The notes beneath the pieces were generated by a model that saw nothing but the letters and a program-made list of their open reading frames with translations, ran no database searches and had not been told where the DNA came from. A DNA stretch of 64,000 bases, from the NCBI GenBank assembly GCA_040219445.1, contig JAVJSM010000003.1:821020-885019 (forward strand), written 5' to 3'. Of this stretch, positions 1 through 18,554 are shown in pieces. Every line of letters starts with the position of its first letter. Position 1 is the first letter of the stretch. Source of the stretch: Filomicrobium sp. (lineage in GTDB: Bacteria > Pseudomonadota > Alphaproteobacteria > Rhizobiales > Hyphomicrobiaceae). The translations under genes were made by a program, and so were the position numbers.

Positions 1-576
1 GAAGATGCGCCCGATGAGGCGACCATCATTACCATCGGCTTCGAGAAGGGCGATGCGGTTTCCATCAATGGCGAGAAGCTTTCTCCTGCAACCTTGTTGG
101 CGCGGTTGAATGATCTGGGGCGCGATAACGGTATTGGCCGGGTCGATCTGGTTGAGAACCGGTTTGTTGGGATGAAGTCGCGTGGTGTTTATGAAACGCC
201 AGGCGGGACGATCTTGCTGGAAGCGCACCGGGCCATGGAAAGCCTCACACTCGATCGCGGAGCAGCGCACCTGAAAGATGAGCTGATGCCGCGGTATGCA
301 GAGCTCATTTACAATGGGTTCTGGTTCTCGCCTGAGCGCGAGATGTTGCAGGCAGCCATCGACCAGAGCCAAGAGCATGTTGAGGGCGAAGTTCGTCTCA
401 AGCTGTACAAGGGCAACGTGATTGTCATCGGTCGCGCCAGCCCGAAATCGCTTTACTCCGATCAGCTCGTTACCTTTGAAGACGACGAAGGTGCGTACGA
501 TCAGAAGGATGCTGAAGGGTTCATCAAATTGCAGGCGCTGCGTTTGCGGACGCTGGGCATGCGGGGCCGGAGCTGA
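1..576 (+). CDS. argG: Argininosuccinate synthase, C-terminal part. The gene starts upstream of the window.
   Basis: The frame is open from position 1. The translation ([26 protein letters not shown]...[15 protein letters not shown]) matches the conserved ArgG C-terminal region. Stop at 576. Confidence 0.9.
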
Positions 577-657
577 GCAGGCGGGCTGTTTGCGGTCTGG
601 TTCGTGTGTTGGTTTGGAGGGTGGGTGCGGTTGCGTGTAGCGCTGCGCCCGCTTTTT

Positions 658-1191
658 TTATCCGCCGCGCTGGTAGATCGGTTCGGTCTTCGCGCGGTTG
701 ATTTCGCGTTTTGCCTTGAGAGGTTTGTCGAGGGCCGCATAGGCTGCGTTCAGACGGCGTGACATCGCTTGGATGTAATCTGAAATCTCGTCTGGGAGAT
801 CAGCACCATTGAAGCGGTCGGGGTGATAGCGCCGTGCGAGCCGGTGGTAAGCTTCGCGGGCGGCTTCCATAGCAGCGCCGCGCGGTAAACCGAGGATCTT
901 GTAGGGGTCAAACTCATTCGGATTGGCTGAAGCGGTGGGCAGCGGTTTGGCAGCTGGCACTTTGGTGGGCCGGATGGTGCGGAGCGTGCTCTTGGCGATC
1001 AGTTCGCGCGGACCTTCGTAAGATTGAAAATCCAGAAAACCGCCGTTGTCGTTCATTTCGTCGTAGAGCTGCCGCGTTGAAACGAGGAAAACGCAGCCTT
1101 TCGCGATGCGGCCGTCATCCAGCTCCAGTTCAACGTGGATGGTATTTTCGCGCGTTCGTGAAGCGTTATCGATGCGGTTGCGTTCGAACAT
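658..1191 (-). CDS. J-domain (DnaJ-like) protein. The ORF extends to a TTG at 1308; the ATG at 1191 is preferred as start.
   Basis: J-domain signature DPYKILGLPRGAAMEAAREAYHRLARRYHPDR in the C-terminal half. Stop at 658. Start is ambiguous (TTG at 1308 or ATG at 1191). Confidence 0.6.
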   Translation of the reverse strand: MFERNRIDNASRTRENTIHVELELDDGRIAKGCVFLVSTRQLYDEMNDNGGFLDFQSYEGPRELIAKSTLRTIRPTKVPAAKPLPTASANPNEFDPYKILGLPRGAAMEAAREAYHRLARRYHPDRFNGADLPDEISDYIQAMSRRLNAAYAALDKPLKAKREINRAKTEPIYQRGG

Positions 1192-1402
1192 GGGAGCCTG
1201 CGGTGTTTCAAATCTGAGCAATTGGACAAACTTGAATGGGCTGCTGCAATTTGGAGGCCGGGCTTTCGCGCCAGGCTGCGGACCGGCCAAAACGGCGTTA
1301 AGTGCCAATTGCAGAGTTTCGTCAGGACGACAAACTGGCGTGCTTTTCTAACCCGACGCCCTGTGTGAGGCTCATTTGTTCGTTTGAGGAGTTCGTTCAC
1401 CA

Positions 1403-3379
1403 ATGGTCAATCGGGATGACAGCGATCTGAGCCGCTCGTACCAGTTTGAAAAGTCCGAAGATGAACCGGTTAACGTGACTGCAAATGCAACCTTTGGCGA
1501 TGTGCTGGCCGAACGGTTGTCGCGGCGCGATCTGATGCAAGGCGTATTGGCGACCACCGCGATTGCGGCTGCGGTTTCGCCTGCTGTTGTGCTGTCGGCT
1601 TGTTCGGAAGCTCCGTTGACGACGCCGAATTTCAACTTTCGGGAAGTCACCGCCGGGGAGAGTGAGCGCGATTACGTGGCGGACGGGTATCTGGCCGATG
1701 TGTTGATCGGCTGGGGCGATAAGGTCGAAGCTGATGCACCGAAGTTCGATGCTGAGAACCTGACTGCTGAAGCGCAGGCCAAGCAGTTTGGCTACAATAA
1801 CGACTTCCTCGGCTTCATTCCGCTGGCTGGACGCGCGGATCATGGTCTGCTTGTCGTCAACCATGAGTTCACGAACGAAGAACTTATGTTTCCTGGTATC
1901 GACCCGACGGACAAGAAATCAAAACGCTTTGAGCAAATGACGCCGGAGCGCGTTGCTGTGGAGATGATGGCGCATGGCGGTTCGGTGATTGAGGTTAAGC
2001 GCACGGCTGATACCTGGGCGGTGGTTGCCGACTCTGTTTATGCAAGGCGGATCACAGCGGAGACGCCGATTGAGATTACCGGTCCGGCGGCCGGTCATGA
2101 GAAAATGCGCACGAGCTACGATAAAGACGGCCGGAAGGTGCGCGGCATGCTCAACAACTGCGCCGGTGCTGTTACGCCGTGGGGGACGTGGCTGACGTGT
2201 GAAGAGAACTTCAACGGCTATTTCTTCAACAAGAACGCGGCGAAGAAATCACCTCAGTCGGCTTCGCTTCGCCGCTACGGAGCGCCAGCGGAGTTTTATA
2301 ACTGGGGTGAGCATCACGACCGGTTTGACGTTGCGAAGGAGCCCAATGAGGTTAACCGCTTTGGCTGGGTGGTCGAGATCGATCCGCTCGATCCCAACTC
2401 AACGCCGAAGAAGCGCACGGCGCTGGGCCGTTTCAAGCATGAGGGCGCAGGGAACATCGTCAATCGCGATGGCCGGTTTGTTGTCTACCAAGGCGATGAC
2501 CAGCGCTTTGAGTACATCTACCGGTTCGTGACCAAGGCAAAGGTTGATGAAGCGAGTCGTAAAGGTAACAAGGACATCCTCGATGATGGGACGCTTTATG
2601 TTGCGCGCTTGAACTCCGATGGTAGCGGGATCTGGTTGCCGCTGGTTTTCGGTGAGGGGCCGCTGACGCCATCGAGTGGATTTGCTGACCAGGGCGACGT
2701 GGTGATCAATACGCGGATTGCGGCTGATCTGCTTGGTGCAACGAAAATGGATCGGCCGGAGGATATCGAAGCCAATCCGCGCACCGGCAAGGTCTATTGC
2801 ATGCTTACCAACAATACAAAACGCACCGAAGTTGCGACGAATGCCGCCAATCCGCGGGCGTTCAACAAGTACGGCCATATCGTTGAGATCACGCCCGATG
2901 GGGGGGATCATACGGCGGCGACGTTTCGATGGGAGATCCTGGTGAAGTGCGGTGACCCGGAAGACGCCGAGGTTGGGGCGACGTTCAATCCGGCGACCAG
3001 CGAGAACGGCTGGTTTGCCAACCCCGATAACTGCGTTTTCGATGCTGAAGGGCGTTTGTGGATTGCGACAGACGGAAATTCGGGCCGTAAAACCGGGCGT
3101 GCTGATGGTCTCTGGGCGCTGGAGACGGACGGAAAGGCGCGTGGGACGGGCCGGTTGTTTTACAGATGCCCGGTCGGAGCGGAGCTGTGCGGGCCCTGCG
3201 TGACGCCTGATACAAAGACGTTTTTTGTTGCTGTCCAGCATCCGGGGGCTGGTGAAAAGGGCGTTGTTTCGACGTTCAAGAGCCCGCGCACCCGCTGGCC
3301 CGACTTTAAGTGGAGTGTGCCGCCGCGTCCGGCGGTGGTGGCCATTACCAAGAAGGGTGGTGGCAAAATCGGGGTTTAG
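1403..3379 (+). CDS. phoX: PhoX-family alkaline phosphatase (DUF839) with a twin-arginine signal peptide.
   Basis: 658 aa. N-terminal Tat motif SRRDLMQGVLATTAIAAA. Long beta-propeller-like body typical of PhoX. GAGGA Shine-Dalgarno about 11 nt upstream of the ATG. Confidence 0.85.
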   Translation: MVNRDDSDLSRSYQFEKSEDEPVNVTANATFGDVLAERLSRRDLMQGVLATTAIAAAVSPAVVLSACSEAPLTTPNFNFREVTAGESERDYVADGYLADVLIGWGDKVEADAPKFDAENLTAEAQAKQFGYNNDFLGFIPLAGRADHGLLVVNHEFTNEELMFPGIDPTDKKSKRFEQMTPERVAVEMMAHGGSVIEVKRTADTWAVVADSVYARRITAETPIEITGPAAGHEKMRTSYDKDGRKVRGMLNNCAGAVTPWGTWLTCEENFNGYFFNKNAAKKSPQSASLRRYGAPAEFYNWGEHHDRFDVAKEPNEVNRFGWVVEIDPLDPNSTPKKRTALGRFKHEGAGNIVNRDGRFVVYQGDDQRFEYIYRFVTKAKVDEASRKGNKDILDDGTLYVARLNSDGSGIWLPLVFGEGPLTPSSGFADQGDVVINTRIAADLLGATKMDRPEDIEANPRTGKVYCMLTNNTKRTEVATNAANPRAFNKYGHIVEITPDGGDHTAATFRWEILVKCGDPEDAEVGATFNPATSENGWFANPDNCVFDAEGRLWIATDGNSGRKTGRADGLWALETDGKARGTGRLFYRCPVGAELCGPCVTPDTKTFFVAVQHPGAGEKGVVSTFKSPRTRWPDFKWSVPPRPAVVAITKKGGGKIGV

Positions 3380-3674
3380 GGGCTGAAGGTCTTGGAAGGT
3401 CCCGGGTTTGCCGAGTTGAGGCGCAGGCGTTTTTGTATACCGGAGCTGACGAATTCCCTGGCTGGGCACTATAATGTGCTTTGCTTGCAGCTTAATCCCG
3501 CCGGTCATTGACGGATGGGTCTTAAACCTTAATTTGCCGGATCGAAGTCCAGGTAAACGCGACGAACGGCACCTTGCATCTTGAGGCGGGGCGGGACATT
3601 GATTGCGCCCGGATAAATTGAACACTGAATGTGAGCCGCAGGTTTGGCTGTTGCGGCAGGGAGATCGGATACGG

Positions 3675-4703
3675 ATGCTCGATAACCACGTGAGCGAAGA
3701 TCAGACTGAGCGCAGTGATGGTGCGGCAGAAGTTGGCGGGGGCCGCCATAACTGGACGCTTGCCGAAGCCCGGGCGATCTATGAGCTGCCGTTTAACGAT
3801 CTGCTGTTCCGCGCACAGTGTGTTCACCGCGAGCATTTCGATCCCAACGTTGTTCAGAAGAGCCAGCTGTTGTCGATCAAGACCGGTGGTTGTCCTGAGG
3901 ATTGCTCCTATTGCAGTCAGTCAGCCCGCTATCAGACGGGGCTAAAAGCTTCCAAGCTGATGGCGGTGGAAAAGGTGTTGGAGGGCGCGCGCGCGGCAAA
4001 GGCCAAAGGCGCGACCCGGTACTGCATGGGGGCGGCTTGGCGCAGCCCTAAGCAGCGCGACATGGATGTTGTGCTGGCGATGGTGGCAGGCGTCAAAAGC
4101 CTTGGCATGGAAACCTGCATGACACTGGGTATGTTGAGCGACGAAGAAGTTGCGCAGCTGCGTGAAGCGGGCCTCGATTACTACAACCACAACATCGATA
4201 CCTCAGAGCGGTATTATCCTGAGGTTATCACCTCGCGGACGTTTGTCGATCGCCTTGAGACGCTGGAGCGGGTCCGCAACTCGGGCATGAAAGTCTGTTC
4301 GGGTGGAATTCTCGGGATGGGGGAAACCGAGGACGACCGGCTCGATATGCTGGTTACGCTGGCGAACCTGCCGGAGCATCCAGAAAGCGTGCCGATCAAT
4401 ATGTTGATGGCCATGGAAGGCACGCCGCTGGAGAACATCGATAAGGTCGATGGCGTCGCCTTTGTGCGTGCGATTGCTGTTGCGCGGATCATGATGCCGA
4501 AGTCTCATGTGCGGCTGTCGGCTGGGCGCAGTGAGATGAGCGATGAGCTACAGGCGTTGTGCTTCTTTGCCGGTGCAAATTCGATTTTCTGCGGGGAGCA
4601 ATTGCTGACGGCGGATAATCCTGGCGAGGATGCTGATGATCGTCTGTTTGCCAAGCTGGGGTTACGTGGTGAGGCTGTGGGGAGTGCAGGAAACTCCGAT
4701 TGA
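3675..4703 (+). CDS. bioB: Biotin synthase.
   Basis: Radical-SAM CxxxCxxC motif ([13 protein letters not shown]). The N-terminus ([22 protein letters not shown]) aligns with BioB. ATG at 3675 is preceded by GGGAGA; the ORF track starts at an upstream TTG (3603). Confidence 0.9.
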
Positions 4704-14246: not shown

Positions 14247-15953
14247 CTAGGCGTAAACCGCGCCCGGCGCGGTCGCCTCGGTGATGTCTCCGGTGACCGG
14301 CTCAATATCGAATGACAGTCCGAAATCGGCCCGCATATGCAACATCGCTCGCTCTGCAAGCGCGGTGATGGTGAACAGCGGATTGACACCGAGCGAGCGT
14401 GGGATAATCGAGCCATCGATGACGTAGAGGCCAGAGTGGACTGCGGTGGCGTCTGATCCAGCCGAGCGATCGAAGACCTGGCCTTTGTGGTTGACGACAC
14501 CACTTTGGCAGTCCGAACCCATGCCGCAGCCACCAAGCGGATGTGCGGTTGCAGGTTGGTTGCCCATGACCGTTCCAGCCAGTGGGTTCTGGACATAGCT
14601 CCCGCCGAGTTGTCCGGCGATCTTTGACAAGGCTTCACCGAGGCGTTGGTAGACGGGTTCGTCTTTGGCACCTGGCCAGCTGAGCGCAAGCTGATCGCCG
14701 TCGAGGCTGAATGCGCCGGATGCGCTGTCGTGGGAGACCGCGAAGAAAGTCTGCAACCGAGAAAACGGACCGTTATAGACACCGCTGATCAGGCTTTGGA
14801 CGGCACCGAGCAAACGTCCGTTGGGCAAGAACATCACTGGCAGGACCGGGGCGATGGGCGACGGCAAAGCGCCATCCTGGACGGCGAATTGATGATCCAG
14901 ATTGTCCGCATCGTGATGCTCGAGTTGCCCTGTGACGGCGCTGCCGACTTCGAAATTCTCAATCTTTGGTGGATGGCCTATGCCAATGGCGTTGACGGTT
15001 TGATCTCCGCCGTAGCCAAACGCGATGATGTCGCCATTGGCAGAGAACCTTTTGCCGAGTCGCTCGGATACGGCGAGGCCAGACTCAGCTGACCGAAGCA
15101 GGATTTCCGTTGAGCCAAGCGTGCCTGCAGCCAGGATAACGACGTTTGCTTCGATGGTGATCAAAGCGGCTTCGTCTTGTGATTTGCCGGATGATTTATG
15201 GTTGGTCGGCAGGGCTTCAATCTGCCAGCTGCCGTCGCTCCGTTTGACGACGCGGCGCACGCTGATCTCGGTGAAGATTTCGGCACCGTGGCGGGCAGCA
15301 TCCGGCAGGTACGATAAGGCGACGGTATTCTTGGCACCGACGTTGCAGCCTGAGCAGCAGTCACCGCATGAGGTGCAGGCGGTCTGGCGGACGCCCGCCG
15401 GGTTCACGTTGTCCTCGAAGCTTACTGCGACGGGTGTGTCGCGCATGGTGCAATTGGCGGCGTCGGCTGCGCTGGCGACGGCCTGATACTTTGTCATTTC
15501 GCTCGCGCGTGGATGCGTCGAGGGGCGGATCCACTTTTCGGCGTTGGCAAATCCTTTGTCGAGCAGGCCATCTTGACGGATTTGCCCCGGCCAGACTTCG
15601 TCGGCAAAGACACGGTTGTCTGGGCGAAGGGTGACGCCTGCATTAACGAGCGACCCGCCACCCAGGCCACAGCCTGTTAAGACGTGGATGTCTTTGCCCA
15701 GGCGAAGATCGAATAATGCGGTTGGTGAGCCGGAAACCGATGATTTGCTTGTGACGCGCATCTCATTGCGCAGCTCTGGAAAGCGGGAGGGGAATTCGCC
15801 AGTCAGAATTTCGCGGCCGCGCTCAAGGACAGCAACCTTTTTGCCCGCGCGTGCCAACCTGGATGCCGAGACACCCCCGCCGTAACCAGATCCGACGACA
15901 ACGACATCATAATGCGCGCGAAGGTCTTCCAGCGGTCGTGCAAGTCGGCTCAT
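14247..15953 (-). CDS. GMC-family FAD-dependent oxidoreductase (choline dehydrogenase / cholesterol oxidase-like).
   Basis: N-terminal Rossmann motif YDVVVVGSGYGGGVSASRLARAGKKVAVLERG. GMC C-terminal region. Start at ATG (MSRLARPLEDL) rather than the far-upstream TTG 16196. Confidence 0.8.
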   Translation of the reverse strand: MSRLARPLEDLRAHYDVVVVGSGYGGGVSASRLARAGKKVAVLERGREILTGEFPSRFPELRNEMRVTSKSSVSGSPTALFDLRLGKDIHVLTGCGLGGGSLVNAGVTLRPDNRVFADEVWPGQIRQDGLLDKGFANAEKWIRPSTHPRASEMTKYQAVASAADAANCTMRDTPVAVSFEDNVNPAGVRQTACTSCGDCCSGCNVGAKNTVALSYLPDAARHGAEIFTEISVRRVVKRSDGSWQIEALPTNHKSSGKSQDEAALITIEANVVILAAGTLGSTEILLRSAESGLAVSERLGKRFSANGDIIAFGYGGDQTVNAIGIGHPPKIENFEVGSAVTGQLEHHDADNLDHQFAVQDGALPSPIAPVLPVMFLPNGRLLGAVQSLISGVYNGPFSRLQTFFAVSHDSASGAFSLDGDQLALSWPGAKDEPVYQRLGEALSKIAGQLGGSYVQNPLAGTVMGNQPATAHPLGGCGMGSDCQSGVVNHKGQVFDRSAGSDATAVHSGLYVIDGSIIPRSLGVNPLFTITALAERAMLHMRADFGLSFDIEPVTGDITEATAPGAVYA

Positions 15954-16200
15954 TTCGGCTCCCCATCTCACATTGTGCCAAATGCATCCTGATCTCTTAC
16001 CGGCAATGCCGGCAAGCGTCACGGGAGCTGCGACACTGAAATTCGCAAATGTCCTTAAGATCAACGCTTTTGAAATATACTTTCGCCCAATTCCCCCCTT
16101 AGCTCTCCGCCTCCCTTGGGCAACGCCATGTGTTCGGGCTCTGTGAGACCCGTCTAGCGCGCCTCGCTTTGCGGTGCGTGTGTTCTGCAAGTTCAAGGTC

Positions 16201-16275
16201 GAGGCTATAGCTCAGAGGTAGAGCATCTGGGTCAGACCCGGAAGGACGAGGGTTCAAATCCCTTTAGCTTCTCCA
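16201..16275 (+). tRNA. 75-nt class I tRNA gene with encoded CCA and unusual identity. The acceptor stem has G3:U70 (the tRNA-Ala determinant) but the anticodon is CAG (Leu-decoding).
   Basis: Manual fold: acceptor GAGGCTA/TAGCTTC with G3:U70; D arm GCTC-AGAGGTA-GAGC; anticodon arm TCTGG-GTCAGAC-CCGGA; 5-nt variable loop; T arm GAGGG-TTCAAAT-CCCTT; discriminator T then CCA. Confidence 0.6.
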
Positions 16276-16276
16276 C

Positions 16277-16357
16277 GTTCGATGGTCGAACACTGGACTT
16301 TTAATCCAGCTAGCCGAAAGGCTTTCGCAGGTTCGAATCCTGCAATGCGTGTTACCA
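16277..16357 (+). other. tRNA-Sec (selC)-like partial tRNA structure lacking an acceptor stem.
   Basis: 6-bp D-like stem GTTCGA/TCGAAC with a 3-nt loop. Anticodon arm CTGGA-CTTTTAA-TCCAG (the E. coli selC stem is identical; the loop gives anticodon UUU). Long variable arm with GCC-GAAA-GGC. T arm GCAGG-TTCGAAT-CCTGC. No 5' strand pairs with the 3' AATGCGTG. A hairpin follows (ATGCGT...ACGCAT). Confidence 0.35.
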
Positions 16358-16770
16358 AACGCATCTGGTTAGGGGCCAGACCAAAGACTGATGGGAAGCC
16401 GGGCGTTGTGGTCCGGCGAGCTGCGGCAAACGCTTTTGGTTTCGGCCGAAGGTGGGCGCTGCGGTGAGCAGCACGGCTGCCAATATGTGCTGCCGCGGAT
16501 ACCGCTGCGGGACTGTGGCTGGCGCTTCGTGCCCCGGGTCGGTTTGCGCTTCCTTCGGGAAGGCGGTCGGCTCGCAGCGCGCGGCAAAGGTCACAGACCT
16601 GGAGCTTAAGCGGGAGCCCGTGGTCAGTCATGTGGGCTAGGGCGCTCGGCGACCCTTTCGAATGACGCAGCGTGGGCGTCGCAACGGTAGAGAGCACGGT
16701 TGGAGTTCAGGCAGTTCGCTGGTGGCTCCGACCAATATCAAAGGATCGAAATGAAGTAGGAATATGGATC

Positions 16771-17922
16771 ATGTTCGGCATTGGTTTTTTCACAGTAGAC
16801 GTCAAGGATAGCGAACGCGCGTTCTTGTCTCGCAACGGTCGTTTTGAACAATTGCTTGGTCCGGGCCGGTTCCGGACGCTAGATCTTGCCGGGCATTATG
16901 CGGCTGAGATCGTAAACGTTGCGCGTGCCGAAATTCCTGCTGAGCGGGCGTTGATGTTTGAAAAGACGCATCCGAAGCTTGCCGAAGAGAACTTCGTCAT
17001 CGTGCAGACCTCGGCTGAAGAGGTGGCGATTGTTTCTCTCGATGGTGAGCCTGTTCGGTTGGTGCGTCCAAACTCAACGCGCGCGTACTGGAAGACGTTG
17101 ACGCAAGTTGATGTGGAACGCATCGACGCGGCAAGCAACGCACGGTTGACCAACAAGGTTCTCGACCGGTTGGCGGATTTCCAGACCAACTTGTTCAAGG
17201 TCCATGTGATCGAGGAATACGAAGTTGGTTTGTTGTTCATCAACGGTGCGTTTGTTGAGACGCTTAAGCCTGGACGCCATGCCTTCTGGGAAGTCGGCCG
17301 AAAGGTAGAAGTGCGCCGGTTGGATCTCAGGCCGACGCCGCTTGAAGTGACGGCACAGGAGATTTTGACGAAGGACCGCGTTGGTATCCGTGTGACGCTT
17401 ACGGCCTTCTACAAAATCGTATCGCCGCAGAAGGCGGTGATGGGTTCGGGTGACGTTGCCAACACGCTTTACCGGATGGTGCAGTTTGCCATCCGTGAAG
17501 CGGTCGCGACGCGCACGCTCGACGATATCCTTGCCGCACGCGACACGATCGACCGCGAAGTTCGTTCGTTCGTGAGTAAGCGGGCTGAGGATCTTGGTGT
17601 CGAGATCGGTGAAATCGGCGTCAAGGATGTGATCTTGCCCGGCGACGTACGTTCGTTGCTTAACAAGGTCGTTGAGGCGGAGCGGGTTGCGAAGGCAAAC
17701 CTCATTCGCCGTCAGGAAGAAACGGCTGCAACGCGTTCGTTGCTCAACACAGCACGGTTGATGGAAGACAACCCGTTGTTGTTGCGGCTCAAGGAACTCG
17801 AAGCGTTGGAGAAGCTCGTGGAGAAGGTTGGCAAGATTGATTTGCACACCGGCGAAACGGGTGGTTTCGATGCGATGCTTCAGCGCCTCTACAAGTTGGG
17901 TGGCAGCAAAGCAGCTGAGTAA
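16771..17922 (+). CDS. SPFH/band-7 (slipin-like) domain protein.
   Basis: ATG at 16771. N-terminal hydrophobic MFGIGFFTV. SPFH-type core (VTLTAFYKIV...DVILPGDVRSLLNKVVEAERVAKANLIRRQEE). A strong terminator follows. Confidence 0.8.
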   Translation: MFGIGFFTVDVKDSERAFLSRNGRFEQLLGPGRFRTLDLAGHYAAEIVNVARAEIPAERALMFEKTHPKLAEENFVIVQTSAEEVAIVSLDGEPVRLVRPNSTRAYWKTLTQVDVERIDAASNARLTNKVLDRLADFQTNLFKVHVIEEYEVGLLFINGAFVETLKPGRHAFWEVGRKVEVRRLDLRPTPLEVTAQEILTKDRVGIRVTLTAFYKIVSPQKAVMGSGDVANTLYRMVQFAIREAVATRTLDDILAARDTIDREVRSFVSKRAEDLGVEIGEIGVKDVILPGDVRSLLNKVVEAERVAKANLIRRQEETAATRSLLNTARLMEDNPLLLRLKELEALEKLVEKVGKIDLHTGETGGFDAMLQRLYKLGGSKAAE

Positions 17923-18054: not shown

Positions 18055-18236
18055 AGCAACGGCTCCCTCTTTTCATTTTAAGCAGTGTTCACTTCAAGAT
18101 GAGGTCTGGCTGACCAGAGTTTCACCGAGGTGTGAAGGATTTCGTCAAAATCTGATTTGCGGTCGCGCGCGGCAACGTCCTAACTAGTGCGGGCGGGTAG
18201 GACGCACATCGAATGGTCCATAGGAGGCCTAGAGTT

Positions 18237-18554
18237 ATGAAGTACGTATTCGTACCAGTCGTCGGTGCATTGGCTGCGTTTGCATTTGGTGCCCAAGTTT
18301 CGCCCGCTGAAGCTAAGATCCGCTGCCAGGGTGCTTACCAGATCGTGCAAGGAAGTCCGATCGCGACCCCTTATTGCGGCGATAACCATCTTGCGCGTGT
18401 CGCCAAAGGATATGGGTCTAAGGTTTCCGCGCGGCAGATCCGGCAGAACCCATCGACGAAACGCGAGATCTGCCAGTGGATCGGACACGACATTCGCGTG
18501 CAGGATATCTGTGCTGGTTTCCGCAACGATGATGGTGGCTACGGCCGTAACTGA
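18237..18554 (+). CDS. Small secreted cysteine-containing protein of unknown function.
   Basis: AGGAGG Shine-Dalgarno 6 nt before the ATG. Signal peptide MKYVFVPVVGALAAFAFGAQVSPAEA. Four Cys. Followed by a bidirectional hairpin terminator. Confidence 0.55.
   Translation: MKYVFVPVVGALAAFAFGAQVSPAEAKIRCQGAYQIVQGSPIATPYCGDNHLARVAKGYGSKVSARQIRQNPSTKREICQWIGHDIRVQDICAGFRNDDGGYGRN

Follow-up and report, generated by a model that had tools for sequence, protein, structure and literature searches.

Transfer RNA mimics inside larger transcripts

Transfer RNA (tRNA) mimicry within larger RNAs is already known from plant-mitochondrial t-elements, mascRNA, transfer-messenger RNA (tmRNA), YrlA and viral tRNA-like structures. 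The element considered here lies at 16277-16343 (+ strand) of a 64,000-nucleotide (nt) stretch of chromosomal DNA, hereafter the window, from a metagenome-assembled genome (MAG) of Filomicrobium sp. (Hyphomicrobiaceae). It is probably the second of two tRNA-derived modules in a structured 5' leader of about 570 nt preceding a slipin gene in Hyphomicrobiaceae, and the two modules may be tRNA mimics whose shape is read for processing.

Plant-mitochondrial t-elements are tRNA-shaped, non-decoding sequences beside coding regions, and have been proposed to define mRNA ends through tRNA-processing nucleases (PMC1920247). The slipin leader shares with them, and with tRNA punctuation, the presence of non-decoding tRNA-shaped elements in one transcript with a coding region. 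However, t-elements are single and short, usually comprising an acceptor stem and T arm only, whereas the slipin leader contains two full modules, a junction and a 263-nt rod; module 2 of the window furthermore lacks a two-strand acceptor stem, and cleavage in the slipin leader is a prediction. The mascRNA and menRNA of MALAT1 and NEAT1 (RF01684) are tRNA-like modules with a reduced anticodon arm in a long transcript, released by RNase P and RNase Z and carrying CCA (PMC8457004). The likeness lies in the reduced anticodon arm and the position within a long transcript, but mascRNA is eukaryotic and sits at the 3' end of a long non-coding RNA, while the modules described here are bacterial and sit 5' of a gene. 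The mascRNA model scores 18.6 bits on a relative against a cut-off of 42.5, so the two are not homologous.

YrlA (RF02553) is a protein-binding bacterial RNA that mimics a D/T elbow and an acceptor-like helix (bioRxiv 10.1101/312249). Both YrlA and the slipin leader place a tRNA-mimicking domain in a larger bacterial RNA, although YrlA goes with Ro60/Rsr operons and mimics tRNA with a single domain, against two modules in the slipin leader; the YrlA model reaches 18.3 bits on a relative against a cut-off of 69, and no rsr gene is found among the ten window open reading frames (ORFs) scanned near the locus. The tRNA-like domain of tmRNA has G3·U70, NCCA, a T arm, the lack of an anticodon and a larger structured RNA in common with module 1, but it is formed from both RNA ends, without a D stem or anticodon arm, and is accompanied by pseudoknots and a tag reading frame, which does not hold for module 1. 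A tmRNA, including the two-piece alphaproteobacterial form, was rejected, with no ARAGORN match and none in Rfam at E-values up to 10; no search was aimed at a tag reading frame as such. In Escherichia coli, the thrU-tyrU-glyT-thrT-tufB transcript carries tandem tRNAs upstream of a protein gene, but these decode and have conserved anticodons, whereas the loops of the slipin leader drift or are tetraloops and its units are set in further conserved structure.

The novel features are the architecture of tandem modules, junction and rod, the association with slipin, the anticodon-less G3·U70 module and the rebuilt acceptor helix. Full-text searches returned no literature description of the slipin leader RNA, and the RNA of about 570 nt, represented by more than 100 sequences, appears to be an undescribed family of large structured RNAs. 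In it, tRNA genes would have been recruited as building blocks of an mRNA leader, which makes it a natural test case for tRNA parts read by shape.

Two tRNA-shaped modules and a rod upstream of slipin

The intergenic region around the element spans about 820 nt, between a GMC oxidoreductase gene upstream on the opposite strand and slipin downstream, and its order from 5' to 3' is a leader three-way junction, module 1, module 2, one or two hairpins, the 263-nt rod, a short linker and slipin. A hidden Markov model (HMM) search detected one copy of the RNA in the window. Module 1 ends with CCA at 16273-16275, C16276 follows, and module 2 begins at 16277. Module 2 of the window consists of a D arm (16277-16291, GUUCG(A)-UGG-(U)CGAAC, with a possible 6-bp stem), an anticodon-type arm (16293-16309, CUGGA-CUUUUAA-UCCAG), an extra arm (16312-16323, AGCC-GAAA-GGCU) inside a 17-nt spacer (16310-16326), and a T arm (16327-16343, GCAGG-UUCGAAU-CCUGC). 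No complementary 5' acceptor strand occurs in the sequence, and the 3' side continues into hairpins. One nucleotide past the T stem, at the place of the acceptor stem, starts the post-T hairpin (16345-16364), in which AUGCGU (16345-16350) pairs with ACGCAU (16359-16364) around GUUACCAA. The initial annotation, made from the sequence alone, had reported an element one nucleotide behind an upstream CCA, with a D-type stem and tiny loop, the same anticodon-type stem and loop, a GAAA-capped stem in a 17-nt extra-arm region, no acceptor 5' strand and a 3' side engaged in a downstream hairpin; this description is borne out in each respect.

The Rfam tRNA model RF00005 matches 16277-16343 with 34.4 bits (E=0.002 in the 64-kb window), above its gathering cut-off of 29 bits, so the likeness exceeds chance and the tRNA-like fold proposed earlier has covariance-model support. 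The match is local and spans model positions 10-63 only, a span that leaves out the acceptor stem. On this module the general tRNA model scores higher than the rest of its Rfam clan; tRNA-Sec is presumably a member of that clan, the output leaving the dropped models unnamed. ARAGORN makes no call at 16277-16343, its sole local call being module 1. An HMM built from relatives with the common subtype of module 2 alone matches window positions 16200-16343 with E=4e-22, and the two subtypes of module 2 are therefore homologous.

Relatives are designated by L numbers, and the counts for the modules of the common subtype rest on 94 unique sequences. The body of module 2 is mostly ordinary and tRNA-Asn-like in this subtype, with a short acceptor stem of 3-5 bp (for example CGAC/GUCG, CAAC/GUUG, UGAC/GUCA or GGC/GCC) that begins 0-5 nt past the CCA of module 1, and with no CCA of its own; the D stem measures 5 bp in relatives. 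The anticodon-arm loop has 7 nt in 89 of the 94 sequences but about 40 different sequences, CUGUUAA being the most frequent (26), and the "anticodons" of the window's clade are UUU, GCU, GUU, GCG, CUU and AUU. Numerous compensatory changes preserve the D, anticodon-type and T stems of both modules, and the elbow nucleotides, GG of the D loop and GTTCRA of the T loop, are conserved. This pattern indicates that the D stem, the G18G19-type D loop and the T arm are under selection and the "anticodons" are not, and that neither module would decode.

The window-type subtype comprises 12 sequences (the window, L001-L004, L006, L025, L026, L037, L043, L080 and L116), that is, the Filomicrobium clade plus a few other sequences. 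Their module 2 differs in that the 5' acceptor strand is lost, an extra arm with a stable tetraloop has usually been gained, and the T arm is succeeded by a hairpin; L004 has no extra arm, nor does any member of the common subtype. RNAalifold on the 12 window-type sequences recovered the D, anticodon-type and T stems and the post-T hairpin, with compensatory changes in 13 of 20 pairs. The post-T hairpin occurs in the compensatory versions UGCGU/ACGCA, GCGUU/AACGC, UGUGC/GCACA and CUCGC/GCGAG, and would stack on the T stem. A helix beside the T arm thus appears to be kept in the window's clade, its partner strand now lying downstream rather than upstream. Such a rebuilt helix points to selection on tRNA shape rather than on tRNA function in module 2. 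In L116, a contig of 1068 nt, tandem copies of the RNA were observed, the first with a window-like module 2 and the second of the common type.

Module 1 (16201-16275, + strand), described initially as an odd tRNA, is a full cloverleaf with a 7-bp acceptor stem, G3·U70, U73 and CCA, and scores 61.5 bits with the Rfam tRNA model. Outside the anticodon arm it resembles a nearby genuine tRNA-Ala(CGC). Across the 94 sequences the outer acceptor pairs are near-fixed (G1-C72 in 84; G3·U70 in 78, with A-U in 10; G4-C69 in 80), pair 2:71 is mostly A-U and the discriminator mostly U73, while free covariation is seen at pairs 5-7; 75 sequences have UCCA, ACCA or GCCA behind the stem. The anticodon-arm loop ranges from 2 to 9 nt and has 4 nt in 49 sequences (GCAA 15, GAAA 9, UUCG 3, others); because loop length varies and about half of the members have a tetraloop, module 1 is considered to be without an anticodon. 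In the window's clade the loop has grown to 6-8 nt of unconserved sequence. The label tRNA-Leu(CAG) given by ARAGORN to module 1 of the window is an accident, and the module is not to be annotated as a decoding tRNA-Leu. A possible masking of the slipin Shine-Dalgarno sequence (GGAG) by the module 1 3' end CUUCUCCA was rejected, since members with A73 keep GGAG and no covariation is seen.

The RNA is tightly linked to slipin. At eight loci with slipin orthologues (61-87% identity) an upstream gap of 700-1100 nt is kept throughout, although the gene on its far side is not constant (GMC oxidoreductase, Zip transporter, FAA hydrolase, ADP-ribosylglycohydrolase). These gaps align end to end, with the leader, two tandem tRNA-like units, hairpins and the blocks GGGAAGCCGG, GCGGAUACCGC, GCUNAAGC and CCGGCGACC. 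A pattern of the 3' blocks, run against 185,579 species-representative genomes, identified 36 loci, all in Hyphomicrobiaceae-type MAGs (Hyphomicrobium, Filomicrobium and Rhodomicrobium, with a few assigned to Devosia, Bradyrhizobiaceae or Alphaproteobacteria). In 34 of the 36, which are all those with enough downstream DNA, slipin is the next gene. A second scan of metagenome contigs with a leader-only pattern, independent of the 3' blocks, yielded 90 contigs, likewise Hyphomicrobiaceae-type; among the 66 informative ones, with at least 900 nt downstream, slipin is present in 63, starting a median 549 nt past the leader anchor. The exceptions are L070 (positions 1-3800), in which a complete RNA is followed by SufS-like and Fe-S assembly genes, L072, with an extra ORF inserted between RNA and slipin, and L073, with a 3' domain broken by rearrangement. 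Two RNA loci were observed per MAG in two cases, L025 and L037 (CAXXFS01) and L012 and L029 (JBIOWI01), and slipin stands behind both loci only in CAXXFS01, L029 ending 98 nt past the RNA; such pairs are either paralogous cassettes or mixed strains in bins.

Relatives differ widely in the linker between CCGGCGACC and the slipin start codon, whose length lies between about 20 and about 210 nt. In L030, L036, L038 and L039 it measures about 20 nt and has space for a ribosome-binding site only. Because such a linker excludes a separate promoter, the RNA must, by this spacing, be either the 5' leader of the slipin mRNA or processed from that mRNA, and a transcript carrying both RNA and slipin would be expected. 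The initial annotation had named a plain 5' untranslated region of the SPFH gene without conserved structure as the outcome that would speak against a tRNA-like element; the first half of that description stands, as the element lies in the slipin 5' untranslated region, but its structure is strongly conserved. The suggestion of a tRNA-like processing or structural element agrees with a non-decoding fold inside the slipin leader whose stems covary.

Behind module 2, the sequence at 16344-16770 (about 427 nt) is GC-rich, hairpin-rich and non-coding and includes a CUUCC-UUCG-GGAAG hairpin, in line with what had been noted at the outset. A small hairpin (16365-16379, CUGG-UUAGGGG-CCAG) has covarying stems in relatives (CUGG/CCAG, UUGG/CCAA, UCGG/CCGA). 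It is followed by the 3' rod domain (16393-16655, + strand, 263 nt), with a closing helix between GGGAAGCCGG and CCGGCGACC and UUCG-capped branches; the closing helix holds a conserved AA/GA internal loop, and the rod junction GCGGAUACCGC / GCUNAAGC is invariant. RNAalifold on 42 rod sequences gave an elongated, branched structure with 52 pairs, and compensatory changes affect 34 of these. Paired cells amounted to 92.5%, compared with 78.2% in shuffled alignments (0 of 500 shuffles equal), and the covariation score was 0.429 against 0.176 for shuffled alignments and below 0.1 with partners slid by 1-3 columns. The rod alignment folded at -64 and its reverse complement at -26. The post-element region of the window has a minimum free energy of -223 kcal/mol (z=-3.2) on the + strand and -172 on the - strand, an asymmetry that fits a structured RNA on the + strand.

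In every clade the 5' strand of the closing helix was also observed to have a second, local partner that is conserved, GGAAGC-N5-GCUUCC, with a compensatory GGGAGC/GCUCCC version in relatives and AGCCGG..CCGGCU in the window's clade (sites 16393-16417 and 16647-16655). The local hairpin and the long-range closing helix are mutually exclusive and may form a conformational switch; 82% of the closing-helix 5' segments fold at -8 kcal/mol or better, compared with 50% of shuffles. Of 80 unique members, 14 have a run of 5-6 U right behind the rod 3' strand, and in some of these the run lies about 20 nt short of the slipin start codon. These U-runs, located just past CGGCGACC in L030, L036, L038, L039, L010, L055 and L097, have a terminator-like look, but they are absent in the window and most members, and a terminator scan of the window returned none between RNA and slipin.

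Identity and possible function of the leader

A canonical decoding tRNA was rejected for module 2, which has no 7-bp acceptor stem or free NCCA and an unconserved anticodon. The selenocysteine tRNA (tRNA-Sec) was rejected because the loop is CUUUUAA and not UCA, there is no 8+5 acceptor/T helix, and the selC-like traits (CUGGA/UCCAG stem, long extra arm, 6-bp D stem), which make up the whole likeness of the window to tRNA-Sec and allo-tRNA, are restricted to the Filomicrobium clade and unconserved in orthologues. An allo-tRNA was set aside for want of an 8/4 or 9/3 acceptor/T geometry, the T stem being 5 bp and the variable arm clade-specific. Only L023 has a loop read as UCA by ARAGORN, and this is in module 1. 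Outside tRNA, Rfam 15 families at E-values up to 10 gave no match in window positions 15900-17000 or in the typical relative L040, and eight further loci gave tRNA alone at the gathering cut-off. Resemblances to RNase P RNA, signal recognition particle RNA and group I introns, suggested by GUCCGGGCUC and CCGCAGC, were dropped, as no model matched and the strands pair differently. A functionless remnant, be it a tRNA, selC or allo-tRNA gene in decay or the scar of an integration at a tRNA gene, would account for the missing acceptor stem, the location right behind a tRNA-like gene, and the long extra arm and 6-bp D stem in the window, and the initial annotation had proposed a 5'-truncated allo-tRNA, a selC pseudogene or such a scar. 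This explanation is contradicted by more than 100 independent sequences in which the element keeps its place and fold and every stem shows compensatory changes. The special closeness to E. coli selC on which it drew was not recovered either, the best E. coli matches being the T arms of tRNA-Lys, tRNA-Arg and tRNA-Ile, and the selC-like traits are clade-specific with an unconserved anticodon that is not UCA. The surroundings also lack marks of integration: the neighbours are housekeeping genes (DnaK, DnaJ, FolD, RsmI and others, from a Pfam scan limited to ten window ORFs near the element), GC content around the element is even, with no foreign composition, neither integrase nor direct repeats appear beside the element, and the RNA locus has no match in plasmids or phages (blastn) or viral contigs (pattern scan). 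We give a remnant practically no credence.

The reading that we regard as probable is that both modules are tRNA mimics read by shape. RNase P, together with the enzymes of tRNA 3'-end formation, would cut the leader at module 1, and also at the junction of modules 1 and 2 where module 2 has an acceptor stem. These cuts would set free module 1 as a tRNA-like RNA with a CCA end and no anticodon, and the slipin mRNA would then begin with the folded module 2 and rod, a structure that could affect mRNA stability, translation or partner binding. Processing by RNase P is suggested because the acceptor stem and NCCA of module 1 are intact and module 2 is closely spaced, and also by analogy with t-elements (PMC1920247) and MALAT1/mascRNA (PMC8457004). 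We infer tRNA mimicry for processing or docking, with an alanine-accepting by-product as a possibility. Several points weigh against this reading. The transcription start, cleavage sites and co-transcription with slipin are all predictions. A processing signal leaves unexplained the retention, in module 1, of G3·U70 and the four uppermost acceptor pairs next to covarying pairs 5-7, and processing alone does not explain the need for a 263-nt rod and a near-invariant leader junction. Module 2 of the window's clade has no acceptor stem and therefore should not be an RNase P substrate. The L070 contig has a complete RNA without slipin, and the competing hairpin at the closing helix together with the lineage-specific U-runs hints at a switch or attenuator.

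Such a riboswitch-like attenuator would set termination or translation of slipin by the choice between the GGGAAGCCGG/CCGGCGACC helix and the local hairpin, triggered by a ligand, a protein, or a tRNA-related factor reading the tRNA-like modules. The local partner conserved in every clade, the high share of segments folding locally and the U-runs close to some start codons argue for it; yet most members, including the window, have no U-run, the RNA is far above known riboswitch size with no recognisable ligand pocket, and GC-rich palindromic strands form hairpins readily, as half of the shuffled controls do, so that we consider it quite unlikely. The retained acceptor end of module 1 leads to another proposal. 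The G3·U70 pair is the main determinant for alanyl-tRNA synthetase and is also used by tmRNA, and tRNA-Ala carries A73 and G2-C71. The retention of G3·U70 and NCCA suggests alanylation as in tmRNA, though U73 and A2-U71 differ from tRNA-Ala. Module 1 might accordingly be a dedicated alanine-accepting, anticodon-less and non-decoding RNA, with the rest of the leader serving its maturation or delivery. The near-fixed set of G1-C72, N2-N71, G3·U70 and G4-C69 with NCCA against freely covarying pairs 5-7, the mostly A-U replacement where G3·U70 is lost, the body like that of the local tRNA-Ala and the tetraloop in half of the members are compatible with this. Nevertheless, charging is a prediction, the discriminator and second pair being mostly different from those of tRNA-Ala, the conservation is perhaps tRNA-Ala ancestry kept for RNase P or CCA-end recognition, the rod and the slipin linkage are left unexplained, and no aminoacyl-transferase gene was found among the ten ORFs scanned nearby; we regard a dedicated alanine acceptor as quite unlikely as well.

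A third proposal takes the RNA as a trans-acting or protein-bound non-coding RNA derived from the slipin transcript, whose elbows and rod dock, for example, a soluble slipin oligomer in a ribonucleoprotein (RNP). The near-exceptionless coupling of RNA and slipin despite varied upstream genes fits it, as does the retention of the RNA in L070 without slipin; slipin has no predicted membrane segment, the longest alignment of its model is to the major vault protein, the shell of an RNA-containing particle, and invariant internal loops as in the rod are typical of protein sites. Against this, binding is predicted only and the slipin scans found no RNA-binding domain, the vault similarity is low (template-modelling (TM) score about 0.4) and expected of any SPFH protein, and in several species the RNA adjoins the slipin start codon, as a cis element would. 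On balance we judge this RNP unlikely, with a minor share of the probability. A composite is conceivable, in which the leader would be the RNA half of a bacterial RNP, module 1 being an alanine-charged carrier or tmRNA-like tool and module 2 with the rod tethering or packaging the RNA in a vault-like slipin cage; it is very improbable. In this family, module 1 keeps an alanine identity pair and CCA in spite of its tetraloop, and module 2 its L-shape after the strand topology of the acceptor stem was rebuilt.

Leader junction, gene calls and slipin protein

The conserved 5' leader junction (16120-16200, + strand) is near-invariant in all relatives, with the pattern GUCCGGGCUCG.UGAGACCCGGCUGGCGCGC..CGC..UGCGG..GUGUUCCGC. 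It contains hairpin A (16135-16152, CGGGCUC-UGU-GAGACCCG) and hairpin B (16157-16184, GCGCGC...GCGUGU around CGC-UUU-GCG). Hairpin A shows a compensatory swap from CCGGG/CCCGG to CCCGG/CCGGG in L011, L017 and L044, and the conserved G·U pairs of the junction are possible on the + strand only. A putative -10 element (TATACT) with a conserved TTTCGCC, the presumed start of the leader RNA, lies at 16076-16087 (+ strand), with (G)CTWTAMWTTYCGCC conserved upstream in relatives. These promoter assignments come from visual inspection of alignments, and a sigma-70 consensus scan of the window gave nothing at this region. An imperfect DNA palindrome, AATTCCGCCGGAATT, was observed over the TTTCGCC and -10-like region in many relatives and is degenerate in the window (16076-16095); it could be an operator for some regulator.

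The window's linker (16656-16770, + strand) is unconserved, with a Shine-Dalgarno sequence AGGA at 16758-16761. ORFs overlapping the structured RNA were found among mechanical and public-assembly calls, in the window at 16254-16697 (-), in L001 at 2150-2668 (-), and in L005 at 2394-2597 (-) and 2707-2994 (+). They have zero Pfam matches and are unconserved, and are probably false gene calls. In practical terms, gene callers set false ORFs on the leader RNA, and tRNA finders mis-annotate the modules as Leu, Asn, Trp, Sec or undetermined tRNAs.

The slipin gene (16771-17922, + strand) encodes a stomatin-like SPFH protein of 383 aa with Pfam Band_7 and no predicted transmembrane segment, and the leader RNA offers a way into studying what soluble bacterial SPFH (slipin) proteins do. 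The product is 100% identical to the NCBI 'slipin family protein [Filomicrobium sp.]' of 383 aa, and this identity fixes the start at ATG 16771. Foldseek with the slipin model returned the best E-values for stomatin and HflK/C, the major vault protein giving the longest alignment. When slipin and the ORFs behind it were scanned for defence systems and against NCBIfam, no defence family was detected, only a weak similarity to HflK/C. Behind slipin, a small ORF (18213-18554, + strand) has a signal-peptide-like start and several cysteines and no Pfam, NCBIfam or PADLOC match; ORFs of 105-107 aa stand at the equivalent place in L001-L004. The slipin model comprises an extra N-terminal beta domain, the SPFH domain and a long helix. 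Pfam gave no match to the N-terminal 146 aa, and the beta domain of about 140 aa was seen to repeat the first beta-meander of the SPFH part. The same domain is duplicated in the slipin of L008 (3001-4371, 456 aa).

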